Position numbers and translations under genes: made by a program. From positions 3,912-35,911 of the forward strand of contig JAISCX010000005.1 of assembly GCA_031265235.1 (NCBI GenBank): DNA of 32,000 nucleotides, read 5' to 3'. The notes beneath the pieces were generated by a model. It was not told where the DNA came from. It worked only from the letters and a program-made list of their open reading frames with translations, and made no database searches. Shown here piece by piece: positions 242 to 32,000 of the stretch (its first letter is position 1; each line of letters opens with the position of its first letter). Origin of the DNA: Rickettsiales bacterium (GTDB taxonomy: Bacteria; Pseudomonadota; Alphaproteobacteria; Rs-D84).

Positions 242-1948
242 ATGAAGAAAGCCACAAAAAATATAAAAAATAACAAAAACACCGGTAATTCTGTAAATCC
301 GGGTAATGTTTTGCCATCAAATCGCATTCTCGTCACAGCGATTGCGGCATGCGGATTTGCCGCCGCAATTGGGTCAGGGCTTTGGACAACGAATTTTCAA
401 GTCCCGGACGATGACATCAATCGAACGTTCAAAGGCACGGATTTCGGGAATTTTTTGGCTATGCACCATGCCATGTATGCAGACGATTTCGATATGGTTG
501 AAAAATATTCCGGACTGCTTTCTAATACACAGATAAAATCTGTTCAAACCAATCGCGCCCTTTCTTTGTTTGTGGCTGGAAAAATTGACGATTCGGCCGG
601 CTTTTTAGAAAAAGATACATCTGTATCCGCGCAAATCGCATATGCCGCGTATTTGATTAAAAACGGCGATTGGGACAGTGTTTATAAACGGTTCAGAAAT
701 AACAATTCGCAAATCCTGGCGCCTATTCGCATCTGGGCCGCTGTTGCAGCCGGGAAATCCGCAGAAGCACTACGGTTCATAGATTCAATCCCTGGAAACG
801 ACTCTTGGCGTTCTTTTATACACGGACAAGTATACGCGGTAACGGGCAAGACAGAACGGGCAAGACAGCAATTTTTGCAAATTCCCGCGGACTTTTTGAA
901 CCTGAATGACTATTTGTATCTTATGGCATTTTACCAGTCGGGCGGATTTGATTCCGACGCGGATGAATTAAGAATCCTTTTCACAGAAAGACCCGGTGGT
1001 CTTTACGCTTTGAATTACAAAGAATACGGCAATTTCGGCGATTTATCCAAGGTTCCCGCAAATCTTCGGTTCGCATTGATTCAATCGGTATCGCACAGCC
1101 CTGTTTTGGCGTCCAGCAGCATTTCATTGCTGTTGCTGCGCATGGCAGAGGTGGCGGACGAGGGACTTGTTCGAAATTCCGACCCGCTGAACTATTATAT
1201 GGGCGCGTTTTTCTATAATTCTGGCAACTATGACAAGGCGAATGAGTTTTTTAATAAAATTGGCACAGATAGTATGTATCAGCCCTTTATTTTACTAAAA
1301 GATGCCGAAAAGGCCGGTAATTTTAACAAAATGCGCCGCCTTTTGACAGCCGCGATTGATAAAAACCCTTTGTTTATGCCGGCAATATTGAAACTTGTTG
1401 ATAAAAACCTTCAAAAAGGCCGGAAAAATGACGCTTTAAAGGTTGTGAATCGCGCTTTAAAAACACCGAACCTGACAGATATGGGCCGCGCCTTTCTATT
1501 GACCTTGCGCGCGCGGGTATATCGGCAGTCCGGCGATTTGCACGCCGCGGATGCGGATATTACGCTGGCTTTCGACCTTTCGCCGCGCGATACGGGGGTT
1601 TTGACCGAACAGGCCCAGATTTGGGCGGAATCCGGACAAAATCTGGACGAAGCATATCAAATCGCAATGATATTGCTGAAAAAATACCCGTCCGACATAA
1701 GTGCGTGGGATACACTGGCGATGATCGTATGGAAAAAAGAGGGACTGGATTCCGCGATTTTAATTTTGCAAAAAATTTCAAAAGTCGCGCAAACAAATTC
1801 GCAATTGTTCGAACACCTCGGCGATATGTATATCGAATCGGGCGACGTCCAAAAAGCACACGACGCATATACGCGCGGATTGGAATTATCCGACGACGGA
1901 CAAACATCAGAATCGGTTTTAAAGAAAAAAATTCGCAAATCCAGATAA
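242..1948 (+). CDS. membrane-anchored TPR-like repeat protein, function unknown
   Basis: 568-aa ORF. A Lys/Asn-rich N-terminus is followed by one hydrophobic helix (ILVTAIAACGFAAAIGSGLW). The C-terminal half has TPR-like helical pairs (GNYDKANEFFNKI, GDLHAADADITLAFDLSP, GDVQKAHDAYTRGLELSDD). I recognise no specific family. Confidence 0.65.
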   Translation: MKKATKNIKNNKNTGNSVNPGNVLPSNRILVTAIAACGFAAAIGSGLWTTNFQVPDDDINRTFKGTDFGNFLAMHHAMYADDFDMVEKYSGLLSNTQIKSVQTNRALSLFVAGKIDDSAGFLEKDTSVSAQIAYAAYLIKNGDWDSVYKRFRNNNSQILAPIRIWAAVAAGKSAEALRFIDSIPGNDSWRSFIHGQVYAVTGKTERARQQFLQIPADFLNLNDYLYLMAFYQSGGFDSDADELRILFTERPGGLYALNYKEYGNFGDLSKVPANLRFALIQSVSHSPVLASSSISLLLLRMAEVADEGLVRNSDPLNYYMGAFFYNSGNYDKANEFFNKIGTDSMYQPFILLKDAEKAGNFNKMRRLLTAAIDKNPLFMPAILKLVDKNLQKGRKNDALKVVNRALKTPNLTDMGRAFLLTLRARVYRQSGDLHAADADITLAFDLSPRDTGVLTEQAQIWAESGQNLDEAYQIAMILLKKYPSDISAWDTLAMIVWKKEGLDSAILILQKISKVAQTNSQLFEHLGDMYIESGDVQKAHDAYTRGLELSDDGQTSESVLKKKIRKSR

Positions 1949-3007: not shown

Positions 3008-5004
3008 TTCAACTTGAATTCCGCGCCAATGACCGAATCTTCGGGCATTTCGGCAAGATGTTCGTCATATTTGTCGCTTAACCCTATTTCGTCCGGACCG
3101 CACATCATGCCATAAGACACAACGCCGCGCATTTTGCGCGCGGCAATGGGCGCGTCAGATCCGGGGAGTTGGGCGCCAATCTTGGCCAATACGCCGACAA
3201 GCCCGGGGCGCACATTGGGACAGCCGCATACGATCTGCAACGGCTTGCCATCGCCGGCATCCACGCTTAACACATTCAAACGGTCGGATTCCGGATGCGG
3301 TTCGACAGTTAAAATCTTTGCAATAACAATCTTTGGCGATTTTTTTGTATATTTCTCTGTCATTTCCATGATTTTGGCATCATCTATGCGGTTGAATATA
3401 TTTTCAGGCACAGTAAATGATTCTTTGTCCGAAATGCGCCGTTCATATTGCGCCGGCCATGACAAGTCATGAATGTTTCCAAAAATCGACTGAATTTTTT
3501 CTGCGGCCCCCGGAATGAAAGGTGCAGACACCCGCGCATAAAAATCAATCAGCTGGAAACATTCGTTAAGAACCGCCGCCGCATCCATATCGCCGTTTTT
3601 GATCAATGCCCATGGTTCTGTGCGCGTCATGAATTCATTTCCGGCGGCCCATATTTCGCGGAGCGCAGCAACCGCTTTTCTGAATTCGCAACGTTCCAGC
3701 GCATCGGTAAGGTCGGCAAGATGGGAATTTAATGTAACATCGAGATCCGAATAGTGCTTTGTATCTAGCATTTCGTATTTCGGCGGCACCATGGCACCGA
3801 AATTCTTTTCCGCCAGTTTGCAAACGCGGCTGACAAAATTGCCCAGCATGCCGTTCAGGTCCTTGTTGACAATGTCCGCGAACCGTTGGACTGTGAAATC
3901 GGTGTCGTCCGTTTCCGGCGCGGACGAGAGCAGGGCGTAACGCCACGCGTCCGCGGGCGCATCCTGTGTGGCTTGATTCATAAATATTCCGTTCCCCGTT
4001 GATTTGGAAATCTTGGCCCCCTCGAAATTCAGAAAATTGTTCCCTTTTAACAGATCCACCATTTTCCAATTATCATTCACGGCCAGCTCCATCGACGGGA
4101 ACATGATTGAATGGAACACTATATTGTCTTTGCCCATGAATTGCGCGTAATAGCAATTGTCGCCAGCTTTCCACCAATCCGCCCATTTTTTGGTTGCAAC
4201 CTGTGATATAGAAACATACCCCCAAACATTATCGAACCAAACATAAAAGACTTTTTCGTCATAGCCCGGTTTGTTTACCGGAATCCCCCATTTAAGATCG
4301 CGCGTGATGGCCCGGTCCTGCAATCCCTCTTTCAGCCATTTGTTTGCGATGGAAACCGCCGTTTTGGACCAGTCCGTGCGAGAGTTCACCCATTCTTGAA
4401 CTTTGTCCTGCATCTTGGACAGCCGGAGGTAGAGATGTTTGGTTTCGCGCATTTCTATATCCGTCGCGCCGGATATAACGCTGCGCGGATTGATAAGCTC
4501 TTGCGGCTCTAACAACGCGCCGCATCCGTCATCGCATTGATCACCGCGCGCGCGCGCATACCCGCAATGCGGGCATGTTCCTTCAATAAATCTGTCTGCC
4601 AGGAACATTTTGTCGGTTACGGAATATGGTTGAATGCTTGTTTTTTCTTCTATAAGCCCCTGTTCGTCCAAACGTGTGAAAAGGGACTGGATAAGTTTTT
4701 CATGCTCTGGCGTATGTGTTTGACCATAAAGGTCAAACGACATATTGAAATTCCGGAACCCTGTTTCTTGAATCGCGCGGTATTTTTCGGAATAGGCCTC
4801 AAATGTCATGTTTTCTTTGCGCGCCGCGATTTCAAGCGCGGCCCCGTGTTCGTCGGCCCCGCAAATAAACAGCACGTCATGGCCATATGCGCGGCAGAAA
4901 CGCGCATATACATCGGCGGGCAGATATACCCCGCATAAATGTCCCAAATGCAGATCGTTGTTTACGAACGGCAAAGCTGCCGTTATAAGGTATTTTTTGG
5001 TCAT
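3004..5004 (-). CDS. metG: methionine--tRNA ligase with C-terminal tRNA-binding (EMAP/Trbp111-like) domain
   Basis: 666 aa. It has the class I HLGH signature (NNDLHLGHLCG), a KISKS (KMSKS-type) loop, a CPHCGY...CDDGCG zinc knuckle, and a C-terminal VLSVDAGDGKPLQIVCGCPNV OB-fold. Confidence 0.95.
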   Translation of the reverse strand: MTKKYLITAALPFVNNDLHLGHLCGVYLPADVYARFCRAYGHDVLFICGADEHGAALEIAARKENMTFEAYSEKYRAIQETGFRNFNMSFDLYGQTHTPEHEKLIQSLFTRLDEQGLIEEKTSIQPYSVTDKMFLADRFIEGTCPHCGYARARGDQCDDGCGALLEPQELINPRSVISGATDIEMRETKHLYLRLSKMQDKVQEWVNSRTDWSKTAVSIANKWLKEGLQDRAITRDLKWGIPVNKPGYDEKVFYVWFDNVWGYVSISQVATKKWADWWKAGDNCYYAQFMGKDNIVFHSIMFPSMELAVNDNWKMVDLLKGNNFLNFEGAKISKSTGNGIFMNQATQDAPADAWRYALLSSAPETDDTDFTVQRFADIVNKDLNGMLGNFVSRVCKLAEKNFGAMVPPKYEMLDTKHYSDLDVTLNSHLADLTDALERCEFRKAVAALREIWAAGNEFMTRTEPWALIKNGDMDAAAVLNECFQLIDFYARVSAPFIPGAAEKIQSIFGNIHDLSWPAQYERRISDKESFTVPENIFNRIDDAKIMEMTEKYTKKSPKIVIAKILTVEPHPESDRLNVLSVDAGDGKPLQIVCGCPNVRPGLVGVLAKIGAQLPGSDAPIAARKMRGVVSYGMMCGPDEIGLSDKYDEHLAEMPEDSVIGAEFKLK

Positions 5005-9135: not shown

Positions 9136-9866
9136 TGTTCTTATTAAAAGACAGGGTTGCATTGATAACCGGCGCAACCGGCGGCATAGGCGAGGCGATC
9201 GCCCGCGAATTCGCGCGCATGGGCGCCACGGTTGTTCTTACCGGCCGCAATGCAGACAAATTGGAAAAATTAAAAAATGAAACCGGCGGGATTGTAATAG
9301 CGGCCGATTTGGGGCAGGCGGGCGAAGCAGACCGACTGATCAAAGAAACAATTGAGAAAGCCGGGCGGATAGATATTCTGGTAAACAATGCGGGCCTGAC
9401 GCGCGATACACTTTTGATGCGCATGACCGACGCCCAGTTCGACGAAGTCATGAACGTAAACCTGCGCGCAACGTTCCAGCTGTGCCGCGCATGCGTCATG
9501 CCCATGATGAAGAACAAGTTCGGCCGCATTATCAATATTTCCAGCATCGTGGGATATATCGGCGGTCCGGGCCAGGCGAACTATGCGGCGTCCAAGGGCG
9601 CGATTGTCGCAATGACAAAGTCAATCGCCGCCGAAGTCGCATCCCGCGGCATCACCGCGAACTGCATCGCGCCCGGATTTATCAAAACCGCAATGACGGA
9701 CGTTTTGCCGGACGAATTAAAAGAAACATATCTGAAACAAATCCCCGCGGGGCGTTTCGGCGAGCCAGCCGACATCGCGAACGCCGCGGTATTTTTGGCC
9801 AGTGACGAGGCATCATACATAAACGGCCAAACATTGCACGTAAACGGCGGAATGGGACGATTTTAA
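9135..9866 (+). CDS. fabG: 3-oxoacyl-ACP reductase
   Basis: This is an SDR with TGATGGIG, NNAG, and the catalytic S...YAASK. The length and the C-terminal GQTLHVNGGM are typical of FabG. Confidence 0.93.
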   Translation: MFLLKDRVALITGATGGIGEAIAREFARMGATVVLTGRNADKLEKLKNETGGIVIAADLGQAGEADRLIKETIEKAGRIDILVNNAGLTRDTLLMRMTDAQFDEVMNVNLRATFQLCRACVMPMMKNKFGRIINISSIVGYIGGPGQANYAASKGAIVAMTKSIAAEVASRGITANCIAPGFIKTAMTDVLPDELKETYLKQIPAGRFGEPADIANAAVFLASDEASYINGQTLHVNGGMGRF

Positions 9867-11644
9867 GAATTTTTTTTCATTGCGCGCAATATCACCATCG
9901 TCCCCGATGGCGTGACCCCGGGAATCCGCGATAATGCGGCAATATTTTCCGGGCGCGCGCGTGATAATTTTTCTTTCAATTCATTGGTCAGTCCCGACAT
10001 CGCCGCATAATCAAAATCCATTGGGATTTTGATATTCTTATCCCGCTGATAGCTTTCAATCTCGCGCGCCTGGCGCGCTATATATCCGGCATAAAATTTG
10101 TCATTTTCATTTCTGATTGCTGATTTTTGATTGCTGTTTTTTTCAAATTGTTCCGCTGTAACAAGACCCGATTCAACCCCGATCGACCCCAGGCGGAATA
10201 TCGCGTTGTCCGCGCGCAGCGACAATCTGTATTCCGCGCGTGATGTGAACATACGGTAAGGCTCGTCAACGCCCAGCATCGTAATATCATCAATCAGCAC
10301 GCCGATCATTGAATTTGTGCGATCCAATATTAACGATTGTTTGTTCATCGCATAGGCGGCGGCGTTCGCGCCCGCAACCAATCCCTGGGTTGCCGCTTCT
10401 TCGTATCCGCTTGTTCCGTTTATTTGACCGGCGAAAAACAATCCTGGAATATCTTTGGATTCCAATGTTGATTTCAGCGTGCGCGCGTCAATCGCATCAT
10501 ATTCTATGGCATATCCGTAACGCGCTATACGCACGTTTTCAAGTCCCGGGATGGTCCGCAGGAATTTGTCCTGGACCGCTGATGACATGGATGTGGAAAG
10601 GCCGTTTGGATAAATCATATCGCTGTCGATGCCTTCGGGTTCCAGGAACACATGATGCGACAAATGTTCCGGAAAGCGCATGACTTTATCTTCCAGACTT
10701 GGGCAATACCGTGGGCCGATGCCGGTGATTTCGCCGTTATACATCGGCGCGTCCGATATATTGCCGCGGATTACCGCATGCGTTTGTTCGGTGGTATGCG
10801 TTATGTGGCAGCTTCGCCGCCCGTGATTTGTGATTTGTGACCCTTGATTCGAAAACCACGGATGATCTTCGTCGCCTTGCTGTATTTCGCACTTTGAAAA
10901 ATCTATGCTGTCGGCATAAAGACGGGCGGGCGTGCCCGTTTTAAGGCGAATCAATTCAAACCCGGCCGTCATAAGGACCGCGGATATGTTTTTGTCCGGC
11001 GACTGGTATGTTCCGTCGTCCTGCAAGCGTCCGCTTTCTATTTTTTCCGGACCGCGGTGCACAAGTCCCCGAAGAAAAGTTCCGGCAGTGACAACGACTG
11101 CCTTTGCGCGATATTTTCCATTCACAATTTTATTTTGCAGGTCCAGGGATTCAACGGGTTCATATATGGTTGTCAAATTTGCTCGGTATAAATCCCCTTC
11201 GCTGGCGAAGGGGTGGCAGACGCCGAAAGCGGCTGACGGGGTAGTGGTCATTGATTCATTAATCACTACCCCGCCGCTAGCGCGGCACCCCTTCGCCAGC
11301 GAAGGGGAATTCAGACCGAGCAGGGTTTTGACTGCATCGCGATAAAGATCACGGTCAATCTGCGCGCGAAGCGCTTGTGTCGCCGGTCCGTGCGTCGCGT
11401 TCAGCACGCGGAAATGAATTCCCGCCATATCCGCGGCCCGTGGCATCATTCCACCCAGCGCATCAATTTCCGCCACTAATTGCGATTTCCCAGGTCCGCC
11501 TATGCTTGGGTTGCATGACATCGCGCCTATGTCTGTTTCAGATTTTGTAAACAATGCAACCGATGCGCCGCGCCGCGCCGCGGCGGCTGCGGCCTCTATA
11601 CCTGCGTGCCCCGCCCCGATAACGATAATGTCATATTCCTTCAT
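9863..11644 (-). CDS. mnmG: tRNA uridine 5-carboxymethylaminomethyl modification enzyme MnmG/GidA (carries repeat insertions)
   Basis: DIIVIGAGHAG FAD motif, MSCNPSIGG, GPRYCPSLEDKV, FFAGQINGTSGYEEAA and YRMFTSRAEYRL are all present. The ORF is intact at 593 aa. Confidence 0.95.
   Translation of the reverse strand: MKEYDIIVIGAGHAGIEAAAAAARRGASVALFTKSETDIGAMSCNPSIGGPGKSQLVAEIDALGGMMPRAADMAGIHFRVLNATHGPATQALRAQIDRDLYRDAVKTLLGLNSPSLAKGCRASGGVVINESMTTTPSAAFGVCHPFASEGDLYRANLTTIYEPVESLDLQNKIVNGKYRAKAVVVTAGTFLRGLVHRGPEKIESGRLQDDGTYQSPDKNISAVLMTAGFELIRLKTGTPARLYADSIDFSKCEIQQGDEDHPWFSNQGSQITNHGRRSCHITHTTEQTHAVIRGNISDAPMYNGEITGIGPRYCPSLEDKVMRFPEHLSHHVFLEPEGIDSDMIYPNGLSTSMSSAVQDKFLRTIPGLENVRIARYGYAIEYDAIDARTLKSTLESKDIPGLFFAGQINGTSGYEEAATQGLVAGANAAAYAMNKQSLILDRTNSMIGVLIDDITMLGVDEPYRMFTSRAEYRLSLRADNAIFRLGSIGVESGLVTAEQFEKNSNQKSAIRNENDKFYAGYIARQAREIESYQRDKNIKIPMDFDYAAMSGLTNELKEKLSRARPENIAALSRIPGVTPSGTMVILRAMKKNS
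10113..10140 (-). repeat. degenerate heptamer array inside mnmG (CTGATTG CTGATTT TTGATTG CTGTTTT on the + strand)
   Basis: Period-7 pattern read by eye. The sense strand encodes NSNQKSAIRN. Confidence 0.5.
10823..10841 (-). repeat. heptamer array (GTGATTT GTGATTT GTGAC on +; AAATCAC on the sense strand) inside mnmG
   Basis: Direct tandem repeat encoding SQITNH. Confidence 0.8.
11194..11307. repeat. 114-bp palindromic element inserted in-frame in mnmG (RPE-like)
   Basis: The termini CCCCTTCGCTGGCGAAGGGG (11194-11213) and CCCCTTCGCCAGCGAAGGGG (11288-11307) are reverse complements of each other, and each is itself a hairpin. The central stem is GGGGTAGTG...CACTACCCC (11238-11271). 114 nt is 38 codons. 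Confidence 0.8.
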
Positions 11645-12417: not shown

Positions 12418-15400
12418 ATGTATCCCAAGACCGACGCGCGCGCGAATTTCCCGCAGATGGAACAAGAAATACTTGGCTTTTGGCGCGCGAATGATATTTT
12501 TCACAAATCGTTGGAAAAGACAAAGGACGGCGCGCCGTTCACATTCTTTGACGGGCCGCCGTTCGCCAACGGCACGCCGCACTGGGGGCATGTCGGCGTG
12601 TCCGCGATGAAGGACATGGTGTTCCGTTTTAAAACCATGGGCGGGCGATATGTTCTGCGCGAACTGGGCTGGGACTGCCATGGATTGCCGGCGGAACAGT
12701 CTGTTGAAAAGTCGCAGAAAAAACTGGCCAAAGATATCGTCGCGGGTGCCGGCATTGGCGGGTTCTGTGAAATGTGCCGCGCGGACGTTCTGAAATATAC
12801 CGACGTATTTAAAAACGTATATGAACGCGAAGGCCGCTGGGTCGAAACCGGCCCCGAATTCGGTTACGCCACCATGGATAAAAACTATATGGAATCCGTC
12901 ATATGGGCGATCAAGCAATTGCATGACAAGGGATTGCTATATAAAGATTTCAGCGTTAATCCATTTGATTGGAAGCTTGGAACCGTGCTGTCTAATTCCG
13001 AAGCCGCCCAAGAATACATGGACGTGATTGACGACGCTGTGACTGTCTGGTTTGAACTGGCCGATGGGCGGCGTGTTCTTGCATGGACAACAACGCCTTG
13101 GACGTTGCCAGGGAATTCGGCGCTGGCGGTTAATCCGAAAATGAAATACGCCGTGATGCGTGATACTGACAGCAAAGAATACATAATCGCAGAATCCCGC
13201 GTTTCGGCATATGAAAAGCAACTTGCGACCACCGAGAAAATCGGCGAAGTCATGGGTTCCGAACTTGTCGGACTGCAATATAAACCGTTATTTGATTATT
13301 ATATCAAATCACAAGTCACAAATCACAAATCACTCTATACCGTAATCCCCGCCGATTATGTCAGCGACAGCGACGGCACTGGAATCGTGCATATTGCGCC
13401 CGCATTTGGCCAGGAAGACTTTTGGGCGGCGAAAAATATCGACCAACATTTTCCGGTTATTCTGAATGTGGATAATTATGGAAACTTTACCGATGAAGTT
13501 ACGGACTGGGCGGGCGAAAATATTTTCGAAGCCACGCCGAAAATCATCGCGCATTTAAAAGAATCCGGCAATCTTGTGAAAAAGGACCAGCACAAGCATT
13601 CGTATCCGTTCAGTTATCGCACGCATGAAAAGCTGATCTATCGCGCGGCGGATTCCTGGTATATAGACGTGCCGAAGATTCAGGAAAGGCTGATAGAGAA
13701 CACAAAAAAAACCGATTGGAAATCCGCGGGAGAACGGTTTATGCGCTGGATTGAAAACGCGCGGCCATGGGCGATTTCGCGCAACCGGTTCTGGGGAACC
13801 CCGCTGCCCATCTGGGAACGTGACGGTGAATACAAAGTATTCGGCTCTGTCGCGGAAATGGAAGAATTTTTTGAAACCAAGATTAAAGACCTGCACCGGC
13901 CGACATTGGATGCGCTTACCCGCGACGGATGGACGCGCATTCCGGATGTTCTGGACTGCTGGGTTGAAAGCGGTTCGATGCCTTTCGCCCAACTGCACTA
14001 TCCTTTTGAAAACGCGGAACGGTTTAACGCGACATTTCCTGCGGATTATATTATAGAGGGGCCGGATCAAACCCGCGGATGGTTCTATTCGCTGATGGTG
14101 CTGGCAACCGCTTTGTTTGACAAGCCGGCATTCAAAACCGTTTCCGTAAACGGACTGATTCTGGACGATCAAAAACGCAAGATGTCAAAGTCGCTGGGCA
14201 ATTATGAAGATCCGATGATTTTGCTGGATAAATACGGCGCGGATGCCGTGCGCCTTTACATACTTGGCGGCAACTTTATGAAGTGCGAACCGATCATGCT
14301 GGATAAAGCCGGCACAGTGTTTATAGAACCGACCAAGAACGTGCTGACGCCGTTATGGAACGCGTATCATTTCTTTACCCTGTATGCGAACGCAGGAAAC
14401 ATCACGGCAAAAAAAGTAGAAAAATGGTTTGTTGCGGAAAACGTTCTGGACAGATATATTCTGACAGAGCTGAACGAGCTGTTCAAATCATGCAATGCCG
14501 CGTTGGATGACTATAAGCCGGACACAGCCGTGCGCGCTATCTCTGAATTTTTGGAAATCCTTAACAATTGGTATATCCGCCGTTCGCGCGAACGTTTTTG
14601 GAACGAAGACCAGAATGCGTTCAATACACTGTGGACCGTATTAATCGACCTCTGCCGCTTGATTGCGCCGCTTGCGCCGTTCGTCACCGAATATATATAT
14701 CGCGCGATAACGGGATTGGAAAGCGTGCACTTACAGGCCTATCCGCATTACAATGAAAATAAAAACAGTATGGATTTGCTTTCCGATATGCGAAAGATCC
14801 AGGAAATCATATCCGTCGGGAAACAGCTGCGTGATAAATACGGATTGCGCAATCGTCTGCCGCTGGAACAAATATGGATATACGGCGACAGTTTAAAACA
14901 ATTGTTTATAAACCCTGAATTCGCAAATATTATTCGCGAAGAACTGAACATCAAATCAATGGGCGGAAATAGCGACATATCATCTGTCGCCGATTCGTTC
15001 GTGTATCTGATAACGCCGAAAATAGGCGCGCGCTTGGGCAGCAAATTGAAAGATATAATCGCCGCATCGAAACAGCCCGGGTTTAATCCGGACGCATGGG
15101 GATTGCTGCCGGATGAATTCGAAACGCGTCTTAATATGAAATCCGGCGTCACCGGCGCGGCGCTGCCGGACAATACCGCGGTCGTTGTGCTGGATACGAA
15201 TGTGACGCCGGAACTGATCCGCGAAGGACTTGCACGCGACGCGCTGCGCTTTATCCAAGACATGCGGCGGACGCGCGAACTGGATGTGTCCGACCGGATT
15301 GTTTTGGAATATTCCGCCGATCCGGAACTGGCCCTTGCAATATCCGCGCACGCCGATATGATAAAGGAAAACGCATTGGTTACAGAACTGCGCGAAAATG

Positions 15401-16735: not shown

Positions 16736-19162
16736 TCACTTATCCCTTATCTTCGCATTAAACTTACATTCCGTGTTCCTGATGATTTCATTTTGCAAAT
16801 CCAGCAAATCCGCATCGGTCATATTAGCGACAGGTTGCAATACTATTTCGAACGCCACAGATTTTTTTCCGTCGCCAAGATCGAACACATCAAATACATT
16901 TGTCTCATAGACGATTTCATTCGCGCCCAGAATCGCGGAAACAATATCCGATGGGTTGATACCGTTGTCCACGATAAACGCAAAATCGCGCGTGATCAGC
17001 GGAAATTCGGGAAAATCATTACGTGATGCGTGATGCGTGATGCGTGATGCGTGACACGCCGTATGTTCCTGCAAAATCTTTATATCGTCGACAATCCCCA
17101 GCACAACGTTCGTCTTGACACCGAAATGCTTTGCGATCAATGGATGCAGTTCGCCGAACTGCGCAGCAACCGTGCCGTTTTTAACTATGCGGCCCGCACG
17201 GTATGGATTCGCCCATTTTTGCGGCGCGGGATCGTTTTCAACATCGCCGCCGTCCAACAGATCCAACAGATCCCGGCGAACGTCGTAAATCTCTATCGCG
17301 CGGCCATGCTTTGCGCCCATGTTCGAACCCGCTATGCCGGTGCGCGCGATTATCAGCTGGTCATGCTGCTGGCCGGGCATATCCCCGTCAAACACGGTGC
17401 CCAATTCAAACAGATTCAGATTCGTCCGCCGAAACCGGTCGTTGAACGCGATCACGTCAAGCATGTTCTGGACCAGTCCGTTCCGCACAGTATTGAGATT
17501 CGCAACAATCGGATTCAAGACAGCGATATTCGGCCGGTCCGATAATAATTTCTCTTTCTCAGAATCGCCAAATCCGTATGTTATGGATTCATAAAGGCCC
17601 AGCGTGCATAAATACGTTTTCAAAGCATCGTTAATAGAATATATGACATCGGTATTATTTTTGCTCGCCACTAATTGCTCTTTGCTCTCTATCTTGTCAT
17701 ACCCATAAATCCGTATCAGGTCCGACACTATGTTTTCCGGTATCTCAACGTCCACGCGGGCGGGCGTGGGAATGATGGTCCATTCATCGCCGTCAATCTC
17801 AACACCGAATCCCAGATTTTCCAGAATTTCTTTCTGTTTTTCGGATGATAAATCAATTCCTGTTTTATGTTTGAACAATGCGGGCGTATACGGTATTCGC
17901 CGCGGGTCCAGAACTTTCAACCATTCAATCCGATCTGAATAATTTTCGGGATTTTCGCCCATGAATCTTAGTTTCGGATTTGTCTTGTCCCAGTCGCGGA
18001 AAGGGACGGCCACGTCACCGCCGCATGCGTCTGTTATGATTTTTGCGGACTGCATTATGCCATGGAACGTTATCGTGGGATCAATTCCGCGTTCATAACG
18101 ATACGACGAATCGGTGGAAAGGCCCAGGCGCTTCGCTGTCTTGCGAATTCCGACGGGTTCGAAATATGCCGATTCCAAAATGATATTTTTTGTATCATCT
18201 GTCGTCATGCCGCGCCCCCCCCCGACAATCCCAGCCAGCGCAAGGATCCCGTCCGAATCTGCGATAACAAGATCGGTCGCGGCCAATTCATGTTCCGCGC
18301 CAAATAGGTCCGTGAATTTTTCGCCAGGTTTTGCATTCCTGATAATTATGTCACCGTTCACCTGATCGGCGTCAAAGCAGTGCATAGGCTGGCCAATGTC
18401 ATAACAAACATAATTTGTCGCATCAATCGCCGCATTTTTGGGATTGATTCCGATCGCCGCCAACCGGTTCGCGATGCGGGGCGATGACGGCGAGATTTTT
18501 ATATCGTTAATTTCGCAGAAATAATATACGGGACATGCGGCATAGTTTTCAATGCGGGCGTTACGCGCACTGTCTTTGAATTCGCCGACATAATTGTCGT
18601 ACTTGTGTATGAATTTTCCCATGCCCGCCGCCGCAAGATCATGGGAGATGCCGCACACAGCCAAATAATCCGGACGGTTTGGGGTTATGCCTGCTTCAAA
18701 AGTCGTGATTTGCGATTTGTGATTTGTGATTTGTAATATCGGCTGACCGACAGTTTCGGATTTCTCATCCAATTCTATTATGCCGTCATGATCATCGCTG
18801 ATGCCCAGTTCTTTCGCGCTGCACATCATGCCGTTTGATTCAAACCCGCGGATTTTTCCGGCCTTGATTTCTATGCCGCCGATTTTACAGCCGGGCAGGG
18901 CGAGCGCAGATACCAATCCGACGCGGACATTCGGCGCGCCGCAGACAACATTGCGCGGCGTGCCCGCGCCATCGTCAACCAATAGCTTGTGCAGATGCGT
19001 ACCCGGAATATCTTCGCATTCCAGAATTCGCGCGGCAATCGGCGCCGGCGCGGTTACTATATCATCAACCTCTAACCCTATGCGCGTCAGGGCGGCGGCG
19101 ATATCCATTGGTGCCGCATCCGTATCCAGATAGTCTTTCAGCCAGTCGTATGTGAATTTCAT
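16736..19162 (-). CDS. pheT: phenylalanine--tRNA ligase beta subunit (carries two repeat arrays)
   Basis: 808 aa with MKFTYDWLKDYL, the tRNA-binding OB domain (VCGAPNVRVG), ITPNRPDY, the B5 domain and the C-terminal FDX-ACB domain (FPLITRDFAFIV). Confidence 0.95.
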   Translation of the reverse strand: MKFTYDWLKDYLDTDAAPMDIAAALTRIGLEVDDIVTAPAPIAARILECEDIPGTHLHKLLVDDGAGTPRNVVCGAPNVRVGLVSALALPGCKIGGIEIKAGKIRGFESNGMMCSAKELGISDDHDGIIELDEKSETVGQPILQITNHKSQITTFEAGITPNRPDYLAVCGISHDLAAAGMGKFIHKYDNYVGEFKDSARNARIENYAACPVYYFCEINDIKISPSSPRIANRLAAIGINPKNAAIDATNYVCYDIGQPMHCFDADQVNGDIIIRNAKPGEKFTDLFGAEHELAATDLVIADSDGILALAGIVGGGRGMTTDDTKNIILESAYFEPVGIRKTAKRLGLSTDSSYRYERGIDPTITFHGIMQSAKIITDACGGDVAVPFRDWDKTNPKLRFMGENPENYSDRIEWLKVLDPRRIPYTPALFKHKTGIDLSSEKQKEILENLGFGVEIDGDEWTIIPTPARVDVEIPENIVSDLIRIYGYDKIESKEQLVASKNNTDVIYSINDALKTYLCTLGLYESITYGFGDSEKEKLLSDRPNIAVLNPIVANLNTVRNGLVQNMLDVIAFNDRFRRTNLNLFELGTVFDGDMPGQQHDQLIIARTGIAGSNMGAKHGRAIEIYDVRRDLLDLLDGGDVENDPAPQKWANPYRAGRIVKNGTVAAQFGELHPLIAKHFGVKTNVVLGIVDDIKILQEHTACHASRITHHASRNDFPEFPLITRDFAFIVDNGINPSDIVSAILGANEIVYETNVFDVFDLGDGKKSVAFEIVLQPVANMTDADLLDLQNEIIRNTECKFNAKIRDK
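17022..17056 (-). repeat. heptamer array (GTGATGC x4 plus GTGACAC on +) inside pheT
   Basis: Four perfect copies plus one variant. The sense strand (GCATCAC) encodes HASRITHHASR. Confidence 0.85.
18705..18737 (-). repeat. heptamer array (GTGATTT GCGATTT GTGATTT GTGATTT GTAAT on +) inside pheT
   Basis: Tandem repeat. The sense strand (AAATCAC) encodes LQITNHKSQITT. Confidence 0.85.
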
Positions 19163-20866: not shown

Positions 20867-20938
20867 GTGATTTGTTATTTGTGACCTGTGATTTGTGGTT
20901 CGCGAAATTCAGGTCACAAATCACAAATTACCAATCAC
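20867..20938. repeat. inverted heptamer arrays in the rpmI upstream leader
   Basis: The left arm is GTGATTT GTTATTT GTGACCT GTGATTT GTGG. The spacer is TTCGCGAAATTC. The right arm is AGGTCAC AAATCAC AAATTAC CAATCAC. The arms are mutually complementary in several registers. Confidence 0.85.
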
Positions 20939-21125: not shown

Positions 21126-21977
21126 ATGGCCGGCAAATCAGCAAGCTCTAAAATATCGTCGCGAACAAGGGAAATGGCAAAAGCGGGCATTGCCGCCTGT
21201 CTTCTTCCTATTTTTTTTCTATATATGCTTCTTGACAAGCCCGATTACAAAATCATGAACGCATTTTCCGGAATAATCGTTCCCGTCGCGCATACCATAG
21301 GCGACGGGGTGTCCTGGCCGGTCCGCGCAATCGGACGGCTTGCGGGAAATGCCCGCGATCATGCGCGGGCCCTGGACGAAAACAAACGGCTGCGCGCGCA
21401 GCTGGACGCGGCATTAAGCTTGCAGAACGAATGCGCGGTGATGTTCGCGGAAAACCAGCGCATGGAACGCCTGCTGGACATGGCGAAATACGCCCCGGCG
21501 CATGCGATCGTCGCGCGCGTCATCCATGAAAACGCCGCCTTTCGGCACAACACCATTATTCTGGACAAAGGGGAAACCGCAGGAATACGCACGGGCCAGA
21601 CCGTATTAAGCCCGGACGGATATCTGGTCGGAATTGTAATCGACGCGAACCCCTTGCAGGCGCGCGTCCGAACATTGGAAGACGTTAAGTCAAACATATC
21701 CGCGCGCGTCGCGGGATCCAACGTATTCGGATTCCTAAAAGGCATGGGCAACGGCGATCCAATATTTGAATTTTTCAGCGACCAGGAATTCAAGCCGTCC
21801 CGCGGCATCCGTTTGATCACCAGTGGAATAAAGGGAAACCTGCCGAACAACATCCCTATCGGCATCGTAGAGGAAGACGGGACCAGCTCTGCGCGCGTTC
21901 GCCTTGGCGCGGCCAGCGGCAGCGTGCACGACGTCATGGTGCTGGAATTCAACGGCAAGGAAGGATATAAACAGTGA
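21126..21977 (+). CDS. mreC: rod shape-determining protein MreC
   Basis: 283 aa with an N-terminal membrane anchor, a coiled-coil segment (NKRLRAQLDAALSLQNE) and a beta-rich C-terminus (GYLVGIVIDANPLQARVRTLED...ITSGIKGNLPNNIPIG). It sits ahead of mreD-mrdA-rodA. Confidence 0.85.
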   Translation: MAGKSASSKISSRTREMAKAGIAACLLPIFFLYMLLDKPDYKIMNAFSGIIVPVAHTIGDGVSWPVRAIGRLAGNARDHARALDENKRLRAQLDAALSLQNECAVMFAENQRMERLLDMAKYAPAHAIVARVIHENAAFRHNTIILDKGETAGIRTGQTVLSPDGYLVGIVIDANPLQARVRTLEDVKSNISARVAGSNVFGFLKGMGNGDPIFEFFSDQEFKPSRGIRLITSGIKGNLPNNIPIGIVEEDGTSSARVRLGAASGSVHDVMVLEFNGKEGYKQ

Positions 21978-22037
21978 TTTGTGACCTGTGATTTGTAATC
22001 TGTCCGTTCAAATCACAAATCACAAATCACAAATCAC
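21974..22037. repeat. inverted heptamer arrays filling the mreC-mreD gap
   Basis: The left arm is GTGATTT GTGACCT GTGATTT GTAATCT and the right arm is four perfect AAATCAC units. The mreC TGA stop (21975-21977) lies inside the first unit. A 20-nt core (ATTTGTGACCTGTGATTTGT) is identical to 20877-20896. Confidence 0.9.
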
Positions 22038-22042
22038 TTAAA

Positions 22043-22519
22043 ATGCATTCATTAAAACGCATCTTTATCGTAATTTTTCCCTTTGCCATAACACTGTTGT
22101 TATGGCGGCTTTCTATTCCCGTATGGAACCCTTGCGGGATTTTGGCGGCAATTCCGATTTTTTATTATTCGTTTATTTCAGAGCGGCCCGGTTTTTTGCC
22201 CATGGCGATCCTGGGGTGTCTTTTGCTGGACTATAACTTTGACCTGATGCTTTTCTGGACATCAATGTTCTGCATAGCATACGCGGCGAACTATATGCAG
22301 ACCCTGATGCGGGCGGCGACACTTCAAGCGGCGGGGTTCTGGACATTTTCGTCCCTTATCGGAATATGCCTTGCAATCCTTGGAATTCACGCGTTTTTTT
22401 CAACATGGTCCGCCGCCGCAATATTGCAGGCGATATGGATGTTCGTATTAACAACCGCGGGATATGTCGCGTGGGTGAAAATAGGGAGAGTTTGCGGCCA
22501 GCAGTTGACCGCAAGCTAA
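22043..22519 (+). CDS. mreD: rod shape-determining protein MreD (assigned by position and hydrophobicity)
   Basis: 158-aa polytopic membrane protein between mreC and mrdA. The sequence alone is not diagnostic. Confidence 0.6.
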   Translation: MHSLKRIFIVIFPFAITLLLWRLSIPVWNPCGILAAIPIFYYSFISERPGFLPMAILGCLLLDYNFDLMLFWTSMFCIAYAANYMQTLMRAATLQAAGFWTFSSLIGICLAILGIHAFFSTWSAAAILQAIWMFVLTTAGYVAWVKIGRVCGQQLTAS

Positions 22520-24322: not shown

Positions 24323-24487
24323 TTTTTAGTGAAAGAAGTGAAACCGCAAAATCGCACAGCGATTTTGCTAAGTGAAAATAGTTAAAATGTGTCACGCAAA
24401 GCGCGACAACCACAACTTTTTTCACTTCTTTCACTGTTAAAATATGCAAAGCATATTTTAACTATTTCACTTTTTTCACTAAAAATT
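24323..24487. repeat. structured spacer built from GTGAAA-type repeats and nested hairpins (mrdA-rodA intergenic)
   Basis: TTTTTAGTGAAAGAAGTGAAA (24323-24343) pairs with TTTTCACTTCTTTCACT (24418-24434), and its start pairs with TTTCACTAAAAA (24474-24485). AGTGAAAATAGTTAAAAT (24371-24388) pairs with ATTTTAACTATTTCACT (24455-24471). There are two perfect hairpins: GCAAAATCGC-ACA-GCGATTTTGC (24346-24368) and GTTAAAATATGC-AAA-GCATATTTTAAC (24435-24461). Confidence 0.85.
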
Positions 24488-29805: not shown

Positions 29806-30246
29806 ATGCAATCCAAAAATGATATTGAAATCTTAAAGGAATACTTGGACACATGGGCTTTGTATTGGGTGGCCAGAGCCACGTTTGATTATATCCATAA
29901 CACCATTGCCGGTTCAAACGTCCTTGATTTTGGAATTGATAGCCACGGACATGAAATAACGGGCCACATAAATAATTTCCATTCCACGCTTATATCCGCA
30001 GAATATGACGCATGGCCGAACGGGGCCCCTATGGTAAGCTCTTATAAGCCCTTGCCGCTATATATGCGGGTTGTGTTTAAAAATATATGCGACCAAAATG
30101 GATTGTCAGAAAAACTTTCTGATAGAGATAAAAAAAACATCGCGAATGCGAACATATACAGGCGGCCCTTTATAGAACTTGCGGCAAAAAACTATGGCAT
30201 AGAACAAGTCCTTCCGATGATAATTCCCTCGAAATCCAGAAATTAA
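29806..30246 (+). CDS. 146-aa hypothetical protein directly downstream of dnaG
   Basis: The ATG lies 3 nt after the dnaG stop. I recognise no motif. Its stop overlaps the stop of the convergent 30243-30872 gene (TTAA). Confidence 0.5.
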   Translation: MQSKNDIEILKEYLDTWALYWVARATFDYIHNTIAGSNVLDFGIDSHGHEITGHINNFHSTLISAEYDAWPNGAPMVSSYKPLPLYMRVVFKNICDQNGLSEKLSDRDKKNIANANIYRRPFIELAAKNYGIEQVLPMIIPSKSRN

Positions 30247-30872
30247 CCGAAATCCGGACCGCATAGCTTGTTCAAACGGCTGCCGTCGTCATGCTGATCC
30301 ACTTTCTTGTTTCGAATTTCTTGTTCCGCGTTTATTTTCTGCCGCATCAGTATTATATCTGGATGGGTTTGCAGTTCTTGCTCCATCCGGTCCAGCGCCG
30401 CATCGGTGGGACCGCCCTGCGGCACGAATATCGGCATTATGCCGTCTGCGGCGCGATCCACCGCCAATTCTATATCGCGCGCGGCATTCTCGATCGTTGT
30501 CAAATGCGCGGCGATATGCTGATCCTCGTGTTCAAGCGTGACATTGTATCCGCAAGAACCGACGCGATGCCGCGAATCAATCTGAACCAGGAAATCCGTG
30601 TATCCGACGGATGCGTCCACGCCGGTCAGAACAACGCAATATCCGCCCTGAACCGGTTCCGCCGTCGCGCGCAGATTATAGCTTTCGATAAAACTGGCCG
30701 ATACGTTGCCGTGCAGTAAATCCATCGGCTGCGACGGCTGGACCACTGATTTGGTCCATTGGGGCACGCTTATGCGAACATCGGGGATTGTTTTGTATGC
30801 AATGCAATCATCTGCAAGAAGTGTAGAGTGTAAAAGTGTAAAAAGTGTAAAAGTGAATGCTGCACGTTTCAT
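30243..30872 (-). CDS. secreted hypothetical protein with an HExxH motif (possible zinc metallopeptidase; occupies the slot after virB4)
   Basis: 209 aa with a hydrophobic N-terminus (AAFTFTLFTLLHSTLLA), HEDQH within TLEHEDQHIAAH, and a helical C-terminus. Its ATG overlaps the stop of the four-helix-bundle gene (ATGA). Any family assignment (DUF922-like? VirB5-like?) is a guess. Confidence 0.55.
   Translation of the reverse strand: MKRAAFTFTLFTLLHSTLLADDCIAYKTIPDVRISVPQWTKSVVQPSQPMDLLHGNVSASFIESYNLRATAEPVQGGYCVVLTGVDASVGYTDFLVQIDSRHRVGSCGYNVTLEHEDQHIAAHLTTIENAARDIELAVDRAADGIMPIFVPQGGPTDAALDRMEQELQTHPDIILMRQKINAEQEIRNKKVDQHDDGSRLNKLCGPDFG
30820..30855. repeat. left inverted array AGTGTAGAGTG TAAAAGTG TAAAAAGTG TAAAAGTG
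   Basis: It matches the reverse complement of 31250-31284 with about one mismatch and one 1-nt indel. Confidence 0.9.
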
Positions 30873-31243
30873 TGTTTTTTATTTTCTTTTTCAAGATTAT
30901 TCTTTGCGGTTATTATTGATGAATTAAGCATTCTTCCTATTTCTAGGCAATCATTATAAATACTTTCAAATTCTTTCTCTGATAAAAATTCCGCGTTTCG
31001 TAATGATTTTAACCAATGTCTTGTTTCAGCACATTCTTTGAGAGATATTCCAAGTTTGCAAACAAAGTCTTTCTTTGTAAAGGCCGAACCAGCTTCGGCT
31101 ATATTTGCACCAATACTGGTCCCTGAACGTAAAACCTGTTTTGATATTGTAAATTCTTTCTTTTCCTTGCACAAATATTTATGCATATTTATTATTCTGG
31201 TGGTAAATGTTTCACTTTTGTCACGTAATACGCTTTCTTTCAT
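30869..31243 (-). CDS. four-helix-bundle protein (23S rRNA intervening-sequence protein / Avd-like family, PF05635/TIGR02436 type)
   Basis: 124 aa from the ATG at 31243 (the track uses a GTG at 31252 inside the repeat). The diagnostic core is SKQVLRSGTSIGANIAEAGSAFTKKDFVCKLGISLKECAETRHWLKSL. This is recognition from memory, not a search. Confidence 0.8.
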   Translation of the reverse strand: MKESVLRDKSETFTTRIINMHKYLCKEKKEFTISKQVLRSGTSIGANIAEAGSAFTKKDFVCKLGISLKECAETRHWLKSLRNAEFLSEKEFESIYNDCLEIGRMLNSSIITAKNNLEKENKKQ

Positions 31244-31249
31244 ATTCAC

Positions 31250-31284
31250 CACTCTACACTTTTTACACTTTTACACTTTACACT
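31250..31284. repeat. right inverted array CACTCTACAC TTTTTACAC TTTTACAC TTTACACT
   Basis: It is the reverse-complement partner of 30820-30855. It fills the gap between the virB4 stop (31287) and the four-helix-bundle start. Confidence 0.9.
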
Positions 31285-31286
31285 AT

Positions 31287-32000
31287 TTAAACGTTCTGCC
31301 GTTTAAGATATTCTTCAACAAATTCCGTGCCGAATGTTTTATATAATTCTTCGGCCAGCAAAACGCTTGCGCGGCCGGATTCAAACAGGCGGATCAGCGG
31401 CCCCAGCCCCCCAAGTTCTGTATTCAAAATAACGGATTCCCCGGTGACCGGCCGCGACAACAGCAATCCGCGTTTTATATTCGGATACGCTTTCCCTTGA
31501 ATGAACGCCATTTCTAACGGATTCAGTTTCCAGTGCTCGTAATCGCTGGCATCTGCCGCCGGATTACGAAAGAACATAACCGTTTGCGCCTGGCCGCGGA
31601 CGACATCCCCTATGCCAAGCTTATCAATAACATTCGCGCGCTGAAACGCGGCCATATACGCTTGCCTGTTCTTGCGGCCTTCCTGCAAGCCCGTTATAAA
31701 ATTCTCTCTGAACATGGGATTGGCCAGCATCGGCGCAGTTTCGTCGATCATGATCAGCGACGGGTTTCCGCCGGCGACGGTCATTTGGTTGATGCGGTGA
31801 ATAATGTATGAAATCACCGCCGGCGCCAGCGTTTCGTCCGACAAAATATCGGTAAAATCAAAAGTTGTCAGCCGCGAATACAGATCCAGCGTATCCCTTG
31901 ATTCATTGAACACGCCGCCGTATTGCAGCGGATCAACCCATTTTTTTAGCGCGGGCCGCATGGCGCCATCGGACGCAAAGCACGCAGTCCAAAGATTGGA
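31287..32000 (-). CDS. virB4: type IV secretion ATPase VirB4, C-terminal part (gene runs off the right edge)
   Basis: It has Walker B LIMIDETAP, RKNRQAYMAAFQ (the RKxN region), VMFFRNPAADASDY and LNPLEMAFIQG, typical of the P-type VirB4/TrbE C-terminus. The frame stays open to base 32000 upstream of the track Met. Confidence 0.85.
   Translation of the reverse strand, partial: SNLWTACFASDGAMRPALKKWVDPLQYGGVFNESRDTLDLYSRLTTFDFTDILSDETLAPAVISYIIHRINQMTVAGGNPSLIMIDETAPMLANPMFRENFITGLQEGRKNRQAYMAAFQRANVIDKLGIGDVVRGQAQTVMFFRNPAADASDYEHWKLNPLEMAFIQGKAYPNIKRGLLLSRPVTGESVILNTELGGLGPLIRLFESGRASVLLAEELYKTFGTEFVEEYLKRQNV

Follow-up and report, generated by a model that had tools for sequence, protein, structure and literature searches.

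A gene of the four-helix-bundle (4HB) family PF05635, located directly after virB4 in a 32-kb stretch of DNA (the window) from a metagenome-assembled genome labelled Rickettsiales, is ended on both sides by inverted arrays of about five short units. We propose, with a probability of roughly 60%, that it represents a resident copy of a discrete and widely distributed cassette built in this manner. The assignment of the element to the mobile 4HB cassettes of the type found in 23S rRNA intervening sequences (IVSs) is very likely. Apart from the cassette, the window contains housekeeping genes. The element had been noticed in a preliminary description of the window; the observation is real, was rightly classified, and is less general than the actual architecture.

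The 5' arm of the cassette (35 nt) consists, on the sense strand, of AGTG cores separated successively by TAA, TAAA, TAAAA, and TAG. The unit is AGTG plus 3–5 nt, with an average length of 8 nt (7–9 nt) rather than strictly 7 nt, and Tandem Repeats Finder detected 4.6 copies of an 8-nt unit at positions 30819–30855. The word GTGTAAAAGTGTA occurs three times in the window versus 0.22 expected by chance. The 5' arm starts 2 nt past the virB4 stop codon (31287–31289) and ends 6 nt ahead of the 4HB ATG. Complementarity of the arms reaches 97% over 30 nt (30820–30849 versus 31255–31284), pairing extends over about 35 nt with one indel, and the 394-nt segment between the arms holds the 4HB open reading frame (ORF) on the minus strand. 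Near-perfect reverse complements at 30820–30855 and 31250–31284, spacings of 2, 6, and 13 nt, and a single-ORF segment of 394 nt had all been reported in the preliminary description, and all these coordinates are correct. Folding of the 501-nt RNA (30800–31300), also proposed there, gave −120 kcal/mol (z = −4.9), and none of 100 shuffles folded as well. The arms formed the outer stem in both the minimum-free-energy and centroid folds. As in IVSs, terminal inverted repeats with arms of 30–35 nt enclose the ORF and, as in the IVS of Coxiella, each arm is made of short tandem units (4.6 copies per arm). The cassette departs from IVSs by its flanks, which are virB4 and a gene for a secreted protein instead of rRNA. 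An Rfam scan of the window returned a single family, a tRNA, and no known RNA family overlapped the cassette.

The 4HB protein matched PF05635 with 97.4 bits (cut-off 33.8; E = 6.9e-28) and TIGR02436 with 101.3 bits (cut-off 24; E = 3.2e-29). Since both scores exceed the curated cut-offs, the profile search suggested in the preliminary description bears out its family call, and the protein clearly belongs to PF05635/TIGR02436. The nearest solved structure was 2RLD (E = 5.5e-34), an entry that holds five chains. The conserved motif reported for the family is GxxRxxxSxxxNxxE (Lin 2006; Zhang 2013). The corresponding residues R39, S43, N47, and E50 are present in the window protein and invariant in our alignment (A1), the first position of the motif being glutamine (Q36) rather than glycine in the clade of the window. 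The base composition of the ORF differs from that of the adjoining genes, both overall (31% GC versus 51–54%) and at third codon positions (22% versus 60%).

The architecture was surveyed at 80 homologous loci from species-representative genomes, which were chosen as the best matches to the clade of the window and belong to Acidobacteriota, Bacteroidota, Clostridia, Lentisphaerota, Ignavibacteriota, Cloacimonadota, cyanobacteria, and proteobacteria. For each gene, an upstream flank of 150 nt was aligned to the reverse-complemented downstream flank of the same size; randomly drawn segments of matching length from the same loci served as controls, and a score of at least 30 was taken as a strong inverted repeat. 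Such repeats were detected at 62 of 79 4HB genes and at 1 of 156 control segments. The period of the arms was 7 nt in 61 of the 63 significant arms and 8 nt in the other two. Strict period-7 arrays had a density of 0.65 per kb within 200 nt of 4HB genes versus 0.044 per kb elsewhere in the loci, and arrays with periods of 5, 6, or 9–11 nt occurred at about 0.003 per kb. The heptamer-bracketed architecture is general for the PF05635 family across many phyla.

Following unbiased rotation of the units, the logo was NNARTKN, with A and K present in 63 of 63 units each and the remaining three positions specific to the locus. The information content of this logo was 5.85 bits versus 4.74 ± 0.13 bits for within-unit shuffles. 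Where paired arms differ, the variation falls on R and K within the core. The median number of copies per arm was 4.6 on both sides, which corresponds to five cores and four spacers (32 nt). Exact matching gave five cores as the modal chain, with a steep drop past five; the arms of the window cassette contain exactly five AGTG cores. Stop codons in all frames were considered as the cause of the core. They fit many units, including AGTGTAAA, but fail for AATGCAC, AGATTAC, and AATTCGC, and were rejected as a general cause. Resemblance to Shine-Dalgarno sequences was limited to some units. The cassette was co-directional with both neighbouring genes in 48 of 72 loci, and the GC content of the 4HB ORF was below that of its flanks in 78 of 79 loci, with a mean difference of 10 points. 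No similarity to rRNA was found in the fetched loci (more than 170 examined), and a search of a phage collection returned two matches, both unannotated. The 80 genomes contained no near-identical cassettes (best pair, 85% over 396 nt). This set is therefore uninformative on mobility, for which plasmids of Nostoc were used.

Complete plasmid sequences from cultured strains provided nine loci with the same design, the carriers including Nostoc punctiforme (pNPUN02 and pNPUN01), N. flagelliforme, Dolichospermum, Euhalothece, and Treponema saccharophilum. The unit CAATTCG is repeated 4.6 times on each side of the gene in pNPUN02, and the units are of the CCAGTGA type in Euhalothece. Over the whole span delimited by the outermost bases of the 5' and 3' arrays, the cassettes of pNPUN02 and of pNFSY06 from N. 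flagelliforme are about 88% identical. Their arrays are identical, the similarity ends right outside of them, and the neighbouring genes differ. In two further Nostoc plasmids, a cassette of the same family lies inside a C5-methyltransferase gene, where it replaces about 330 nt. The loss covers the PCQ and ENP motifs of the catalytic core, both of which are present in the intact homologue of strain PCC 7120, and the latter gene contains one CAATTCG at the left junction. Sharp edges in unrelated contexts and presence or absence at orthologous sites are the properties of a discrete mobile cassette, and these comparisons show the arrays to be the physical termini of a transferable unit.

The two arms of a cassette change in concert. 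In Nostoc sp. UHCC 0870, a cassette whose protein displays 89.5% amino acid identity carries an insertion of about 25 nt, GACTAACGTCCCGCTCCGCTAACG, at mirror sites of both arms. Since independent insertions are implausible, this arrangement implies templating of one arm by the other, or a fold-back stage in which the stem exists as a duplex. The same mechanism would account for the combination of locus-specific spacers with complementary arms, and also for the lack of a G:U bias among mismatches between arms. The 5' arm of the UHCC 0870 cassette bears a second, different insertion in addition to GACTAACGTCCCGCTCCGCTAACG. GACTAACGTCCCGCTCCGCTAACG is perhaps one of the small dispersed repeats reported for Nostoc.

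Other features were observed at the loci of cultured strains. In plasmid pTS1 of T. saccharophilum, a complete ORF-less hairpin of GGAAAGT units is located directly upstream of the 4HB gene (L171, 1335–1495). In Dolichospermum, a second, unpaired array (AATTTGG, six copies) lies beside the paired AATTCGT array (L173, 1350–1420). Two cassettes of Nostoc plasmids adjoin, respectively, XisH/XisI genes and TnsA (L169, 1995–2731) and a gene for an Rpn-family nuclease (L170, 826–1440). MacGregor reported that TAACTGA arrays and XisH/XisI are alike in their taxonomic distribution. The XisH/XisI neighbourhood observed here may be a coincidence on plasmids that are rich in mobile elements.

Comparison of the virB4 locus in relatives, as envisaged in the preliminary description, revealed junctions with the cassette, with ORF-less arrays, or with neither. 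A total of 72 distinct junctions between virB4 and the downstream gene, designated p209, were recovered from metagenomes. The 54 more distant junctions are 64–120 nt long and are followed by an ordinary signal peptide; arrays were present in only one of them (L166). The remaining 18 junctions form a clade, many of them from the metagenome series of the closest relatives of the window, and include 4 with a cassette, 10 with ORF-less inverted arrays (loops of 3–100 nt), and 4 devoid of arrays. The cassette junctions (the window, L081, L097, and L105) share AGTGTA-type units of 7–8 nt, and a cassette at the same site with the same unit type is found in the independent assemblies L081, L082, L083, L097, L098, and L105. 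The ORF-less junctions have the units ATTGCTG, AATTAAC, GGATGAG, AGATGGC, AGTGAAT, AGAGCAT, AAGGAAT, and AAGGCAT. The earlier suggestion that the ORF-less arrays at 20867, 21974, and 24323 are relatives of the element is supported by the orthologous virB4 junction, where such arrays take the place of the cassette in related genomes.

Among the four 4HB genes of this clade, synonymous sites are saturated, dN/dS is 0.07–0.11, and distances track the host tree. From these values, the cassette is an old and functional resident at the virB4 junction, with an ORF held by purifying selection in four lineages and repeatedly lost or replaced in others. In one subclade, the units AAGGCAT, AAGGAAT, and AGAGCAT differ by one or two bases, and the arms are exactly complementary in each case. 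The closest relative of the window (L084; 98% identity over the C-terminus of VirB4) has an unrelated unit and no ORF, a state that looks more like replacement than drift. Heptamer arrays located elsewhere in the flanks are 15-fold more frequent in the clade (0.062 per kb) than in array-free relatives (0.004 per kb). Junction gaps of 710–760 nt in distant relatives were considered as candidate cassettes and ruled out. They correspond to tandem p209 paralogues with the motif HEQDH (L130, L131, L143, L145, L146, L149, and L154). L084 shows a further, separate feature: virB4 and p209 are parted by an inserted gene for a hexapeptide-repeat transferase, which lies on the opposite strand, and the terminal 18 nt of virB4 (AAACGTCAAAATGTTTAA) occur in duplicate, once on each side of this insertion (3142–3159 and 3974–3990).

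The preliminary description had placed the cassette between virB4 and the next gene. The cassette does follow virB4 directly, but its 3' arm lies inside p209 and is not intergenic. That description omitted the p209 ORF, which begins at the overlap with the 4HB stop codon and reads through the 3' arm. The product of p209 has no match to any Pfam or NCBIfam family. The gene adjoins virB4 in the 72 junctions, the HExxH motif is invariant, and cysteines are conserved. The 3' arm encodes codons 6–18 (FTFTLFTLLHSTL), which form the hydrophobic core of the signal peptide, and the start codon and n-region sit in the loop of the hairpin. The same organization was found in most array-bearing junctions. 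The pyrimidine-rich strand of the arrays is stop-free and, since it encodes F, L, T, I, H, and Y, can replace the h-region of a signal peptide. The 3' arm of the window cassette is shown by its reading frame to have been exapted as the hydrophobic core of the p209 signal peptide. Since the start codon is in the loop, excision of the stem between virB4 and the downstream gene, as had been suggested earlier, would remove the p209 start codon.

The likeness to ORF-carrying 23S rRNA IVSs, which the preliminary description had proposed on the basis of the order repeat–ORF–repeat, extends to arms made of tandem heptamers. In the IVSs of Coxiella and Leptospira, as in the window, a PF05635 ORF occupies the loop of a long stem formed by terminal repeats, for a total of about 430–465 nt. 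The IVS of Coxiella has a 28-bp terminal stem, the 5' arm of which consists of three or four tandem copies of GACAGAT that separate a putative ribosome-binding site from the ORF; strains differ in the copy number of the heptamer, and in vitro the first repeat is the site of RNase III cleavage (PMC4990558). In contrast to IVSs, the window cassette resides in an mRNA operon rather than in rRNA, its unit averages 8 instead of 7 nt, and its 3' arm belongs to the coding sequence of the next gene. The Coxiella IVS ORF appears to be decaying and unexpressed, whereas the window ORF is under purifying selection.

The arrays also resemble the heptamer arrays of cyanobacteria, Bacteroidetes, and Beggiatoaceae, among them the short tandemly repeated repetitive (STRR) sequences and the TAACTGA arrays. 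These have 7-nt units in two to six or more copies, are mostly intergenic and close to start codons, and vary by indels in steps of 7 nt. STRR units such as CCCCAGT and TTGGTCA fit the form A-N-T-G-NNN. The taxonomic range of heptamer arrays matches that of the 4HB cassettes, and arrays of this type border the 4HB genes of Nostoc, Euhalothece, and Dolichospermum. In contrast, the published arrays are direct, and neither inverted pairing nor PF05635 genes are mentioned. Their function and binding partner were stated to be unknown for Beggiatoaceae, cyanobacteria, and Bacteroidetes (PMC4679880), and also for Nostoc (bioRxiv 10.1101/2022.06.06.494920). PF05635 genes wedged in cas operons, e.g. 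between cmr3 and cmr2, were described with no comment on arrays (PMC3936711), and flanking arrays were not mentioned for the PF05635 genes in the rRNA insertions of candidate phyla radiation (CPR) bacteria. In the searchable literature, we found no description of heptamer-bracketed 4HB genes outside the Coxiella IVS. The link between 4HB genes and heptamer arrays therefore appears to be new, and the family-wide rule appears to be undescribed.

We propose that ORF-carrying 23S rRNA IVSs are cassettes of this kind residing in rRNA, the window copy residing in the virB3–virB4–p209 operon. Both arms change together, which implies either arm-to-arm copying or a single-stranded fold-back stage. In the transcript, the arms would pair into a stem of about 35 bp, leaving the 4HB ORF in the loop. 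By analogy with the IVSs of Coxiella and Leptospira, this stem may be a substrate for RNase III; we place cleavage at the window stem somewhat below even odds. Cleavage would detach virB4 from the downstream RNA but would also strip p209 of its start codon, implying that cleavage would be partial or that ribosomes would hold the stem open. Because the 4HB start codon is at the edge of the stem, the latter would have to be opened by ribosomes that finish translating virB4. The combination of a ribosome terminating 2 nt before the 5' arm and of another one initiating 6 nt after it may thus act as a translational-coupling device.

The 4HB protein, if homopentameric, may bind an array of five cores with one core per protomer, and binding would control formation of the stem, translation of the 4HB ORF, or propagation of the element. 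This suggestion, which we regard as tentative and rather doubtful, was prompted by the match between five cores and five protomers, by conservation of the core beyond the needs of pairing, and by the precedent of Avd, a pentamer in which all five protomers contact a single RNA stem-loop with the same residues (bioRxiv 10.1101/2023.10.23.563531).

Several observations weigh against the proposed cassette or against parts of its mechanism. The 80 surveyed loci are not a random sample of PF05635, and 17 of the 79 4HB genes lack a strong inverted repeat. Mismatches between arms are compatible with pairing of the sense RNA in 44 cases versus 53 for the antisense RNA. There is no G:U bias, so selection on the RNA stem alone is not demonstrated. 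No target-site duplication was found at the junctions examined (the window, L168/L170, and L177), and neither the cassette nor the rest of the window codes for a recombinase, nuclease, or reverse transcriptase. A cut at the stem would part the start codon of p209 from the body of the gene, yet p209 is conserved. In the lineage of the window, the cassette looks vertically inherited, mobility being shown only in Nostoc. Finally, the A-R-T-K core is often missing from the ORF-less arrays at the virB4 junction.

The arrays could alternatively belong to a purely DNA-level selfish palindromic element, akin to REPIN/RAYT systems, to miniature inverted-repeat transposable elements (MITEs), or to the palindromes of Rickettsia, the RNA stem being a by-product. 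The ends would be recognized by the 4HB protein itself or by an enzyme encoded in trans, and ORF-less and solo arrays would be non-autonomous or decayed. This explanation accounts for the sharp edges of the cassettes in unrelated contexts, the insertion or replacement within the methyltransferase gene, the mirrored insertion in both arms, the lack of a G:U bias, a core kept beyond pairing needs, the AT-rich ORF in 78 of 79 loci, the in-frame arrays in pheT, ileS, and gidA, and the 15-fold enrichment of arrays in the clade with junction arrays or cassettes. It is at odds with a 4HB protein devoid of a catalytic domain and with the absence of target duplication, and it has difficulty in explaining, without a constraint on the transcript, the strong sense bias within operons and at every intercistronic hairpin of the window. 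In addition, processing at the RNA level is established for the rRNA members. Comparison with known elements is also mixed. REP/REPIN-RAYT systems likewise contain one gene between inverted short repeats that are also scattered as ORF-less hairpins. RAYT belongs to the tyrosine transposases, and its catalytic fold is known; the 4HB protein has no known catalytic site. REP sequences are conserved within a genome, unlike the present tandem arrays, whose 3-nt spacer changes with the locus. The variation of the arms between loci, the lack of target duplication, and a sole ORF of the 4HB family do not correspond to a transposon or MITE. The palindromic elements of Rickettsia form conserved families of 100–150 nt, with no tandem heptamers and no associated ORF. 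They share with the window the tolerance of repeats in frame, exemplified by pheT, ileS, and gidA, the last with its 122-nt palindrome. A purely DNA-level element overlaps the proposed cassette rather than excluding it, and we consider it unlikely, though far from negligible.

The arms might also be ordinary intercistronic mRNA stem-loops that arose from local microsatellites and act as stabilizers or in coupling, the 4HB gene being there by chance. ORF-less hairpins do occupy the intercistronic spaces of the mreC-mreD-pbp2-rodA string and, in relatives, the space between virB4 and p209, and a single CAATTCG, as in the intact gene of PCC 7120, could seed a local expansion. However, chance does not account for the bracketing of 62 of 79 4HB genes from many phyla versus 1 of 156 controls, for cassettes with identical arrays in unrelated contexts, for an ORF with a GC content far from that of its host, or for the same architecture within rRNA. 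This improbable explanation is already largely refuted by the bracketing survey and by the boundaries of the Nostoc cassettes. We rate still lower, as very improbable, a relationship with diversity-generating retroelements (DGRs), in which the protein would be an Avd and the repeats degraded template/variable repeats or priming structures. The pentameric 4HB barrel fold is common to both proteins, and the Avd models PF22296 and NF033474 gave weak matches (19.4 and 22.2 bits); both scores are far under the cut-offs (40 and 80 bits, respectively). Neither a DGR reverse transcriptase nor a template/variable repeat pair occurs in the 32-kb window, and no reverse transcriptase was found in the contexts inspected, most other loci being unannotated. 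DGR membership was rejected on the basis of the scores and of the lack of a reverse transcriptase in the window. Chance likeness or a low-complexity assembly artefact might be feared since the window is from a metagenome-assembled genome and repeats can be mis-assembled. This explanation is already refuted by the occurrence of the same cassette, unit type, and site in the independent assemblies listed above, by the results for shuffled sequences and for the unit word, and by an identical design in finished plasmid sequences.

Returning to the discrete cassette bracketed by arrays, a broader proposal, which we advance as a speculation with the odds clearly against it, is that PF05635 proteins may be the missing partner of heptamer arrays. 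The bracketed gene would be an autonomous, recombinase-less cassette, and solo or ORF-less arrays would be its derivatives. A single strand would wrap around the barrel of the protein, five A-R-T-K cores spaced by 7 nt being read by the pentamer, and propagation would proceed via a single-stranded fold-back intermediate. The derivatives would comprise the STRR sequences of cyanobacteria, the TAACTGA arrays, the ORF-less rRNA IVSs, and the in-frame arrays of housekeeping genes. If true, this proposal would explain the function of the so-called 23S rRNA intervening sequence proteins and their scattered occurrence in rRNA genes and in operons, those of cas genes among them. It would also account for the identity and the binder of the heptamer arrays of cyanobacteria, Bacteroidetes, and Beggiatoaceae, and for the sharp, transferable boundaries of a gene-sized element devoid of recombinase. 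The handles available are the NNARTKN motif present about five times per arm, a stoichiometry that matches a pentamer, and a site known with a cassette, with ORF-less arrays, and empty; the plasmids of N. punctiforme PCC 73102 provide cultured carriers that allow tests. For annotation, cassettes split or remodel neighbouring genes, as seen in the signal peptide derived from an arm in the window and its relatives and in the Nostoc methyltransferase gene deprived of its catalytic core, and may seed in-frame repeat insertions in essential genes.

Table 1. Coordinates of the cassette, of its neighbours, and of other repeats in the window, followed by two features of Nostoc plasmids. Positions refer to the window unless a locus is indicated.
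Feature	Position	Strand	Remarks
5' arm of cassette	31250..31284	-	five AGTG cores
4HB gene, 124 aa	30869..31243	-	ATG 31243, stop 30869-30871
3' arm of cassette	30820..30855	-	complement of 5' arm, five cores; within p209; starts 13 nt past 4HB stop
virB4, 3' part	31287..31961	-	VirB4 model matched at C-terminal positions 573-786 of 792
p209, downstream gene, 209 aa, secreted, HExxH	30243..30872	-	ATG overlaps 4HB stop (ATGA)
ORF-less hairpin, inverted TGTGATT-type heptamers	20867..20938	+	upstream of mreC; -32 kcal/mol, z = -6.8
ORF-less hairpin, inverted heptamers	21974..22038	+	z = -7.9
Compound ORF-less element	24323..24485	+	between PBP2 gene and rodA; -70.5 kcal/mol, z = -10.9
Solo array in pheT	17022..17054	-	CGTGATG x4.7 on + strand
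Solo array in pheT	18705-18734		in frame
Solo array in ileS	13305-13333		in frame
Solo array in gidA	~10822-10842		in frame
Palindromic insertion, 122 nt, GC-rich	11190-11311	-	in frame in gidA/mnmG (9863-11644)
Interrupted methyltransferase	L175/L177 931-1827		intact L178 401-1162; remnants annotated as two genes
Mirrored insertion GACTAACGTCCCGCTCCGCTAACG	L176 (UHCC 0870 plasmid) 1062-1156 and 1546-1618		arms match 42/43

Since the match to the VirB4 model is partial, virB4 evidently runs past the edge of the window at position 32000. The three ORF-less elements of the window, which the preliminary description had listed as possible empty or decayed relatives of the cassette, sit in intercistronic gaps of mreC-mreD-PBP2-rodA with the G/T-rich strand as the sense strand. 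Those at 20867 and 21974 are built of 7-nt units, as are the STRR and TAACTGA arrays. The hairpin at 21974 fills the gap from the mreC stop codon, which lies in its first unit, to the next ATG at 22043. The element at 24323 consists of an outer AGTGAAA-type stem around three inner hairpins (small, GC or AT) and contains two interleaved pairs of AGTGAAA-type arrays; it could correspond to two nested elements.

The solo arrays comprise 2.6–4.7 units and are in frame in essential genes, the coding strand being the stop-free strand of the AAATCAC/CATCACG type. The palindrome of gidA has 26-nt arms that are 96% complementary, an inner palindrome, and no heptamers, and it splits the match to the GIDA domain in two. 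In one of the relatives that carry the cassette (L081), an inverted pair of heptamer arrays, GGACGAT-type then CCATCAT-type, is located in lpxK (258–324).

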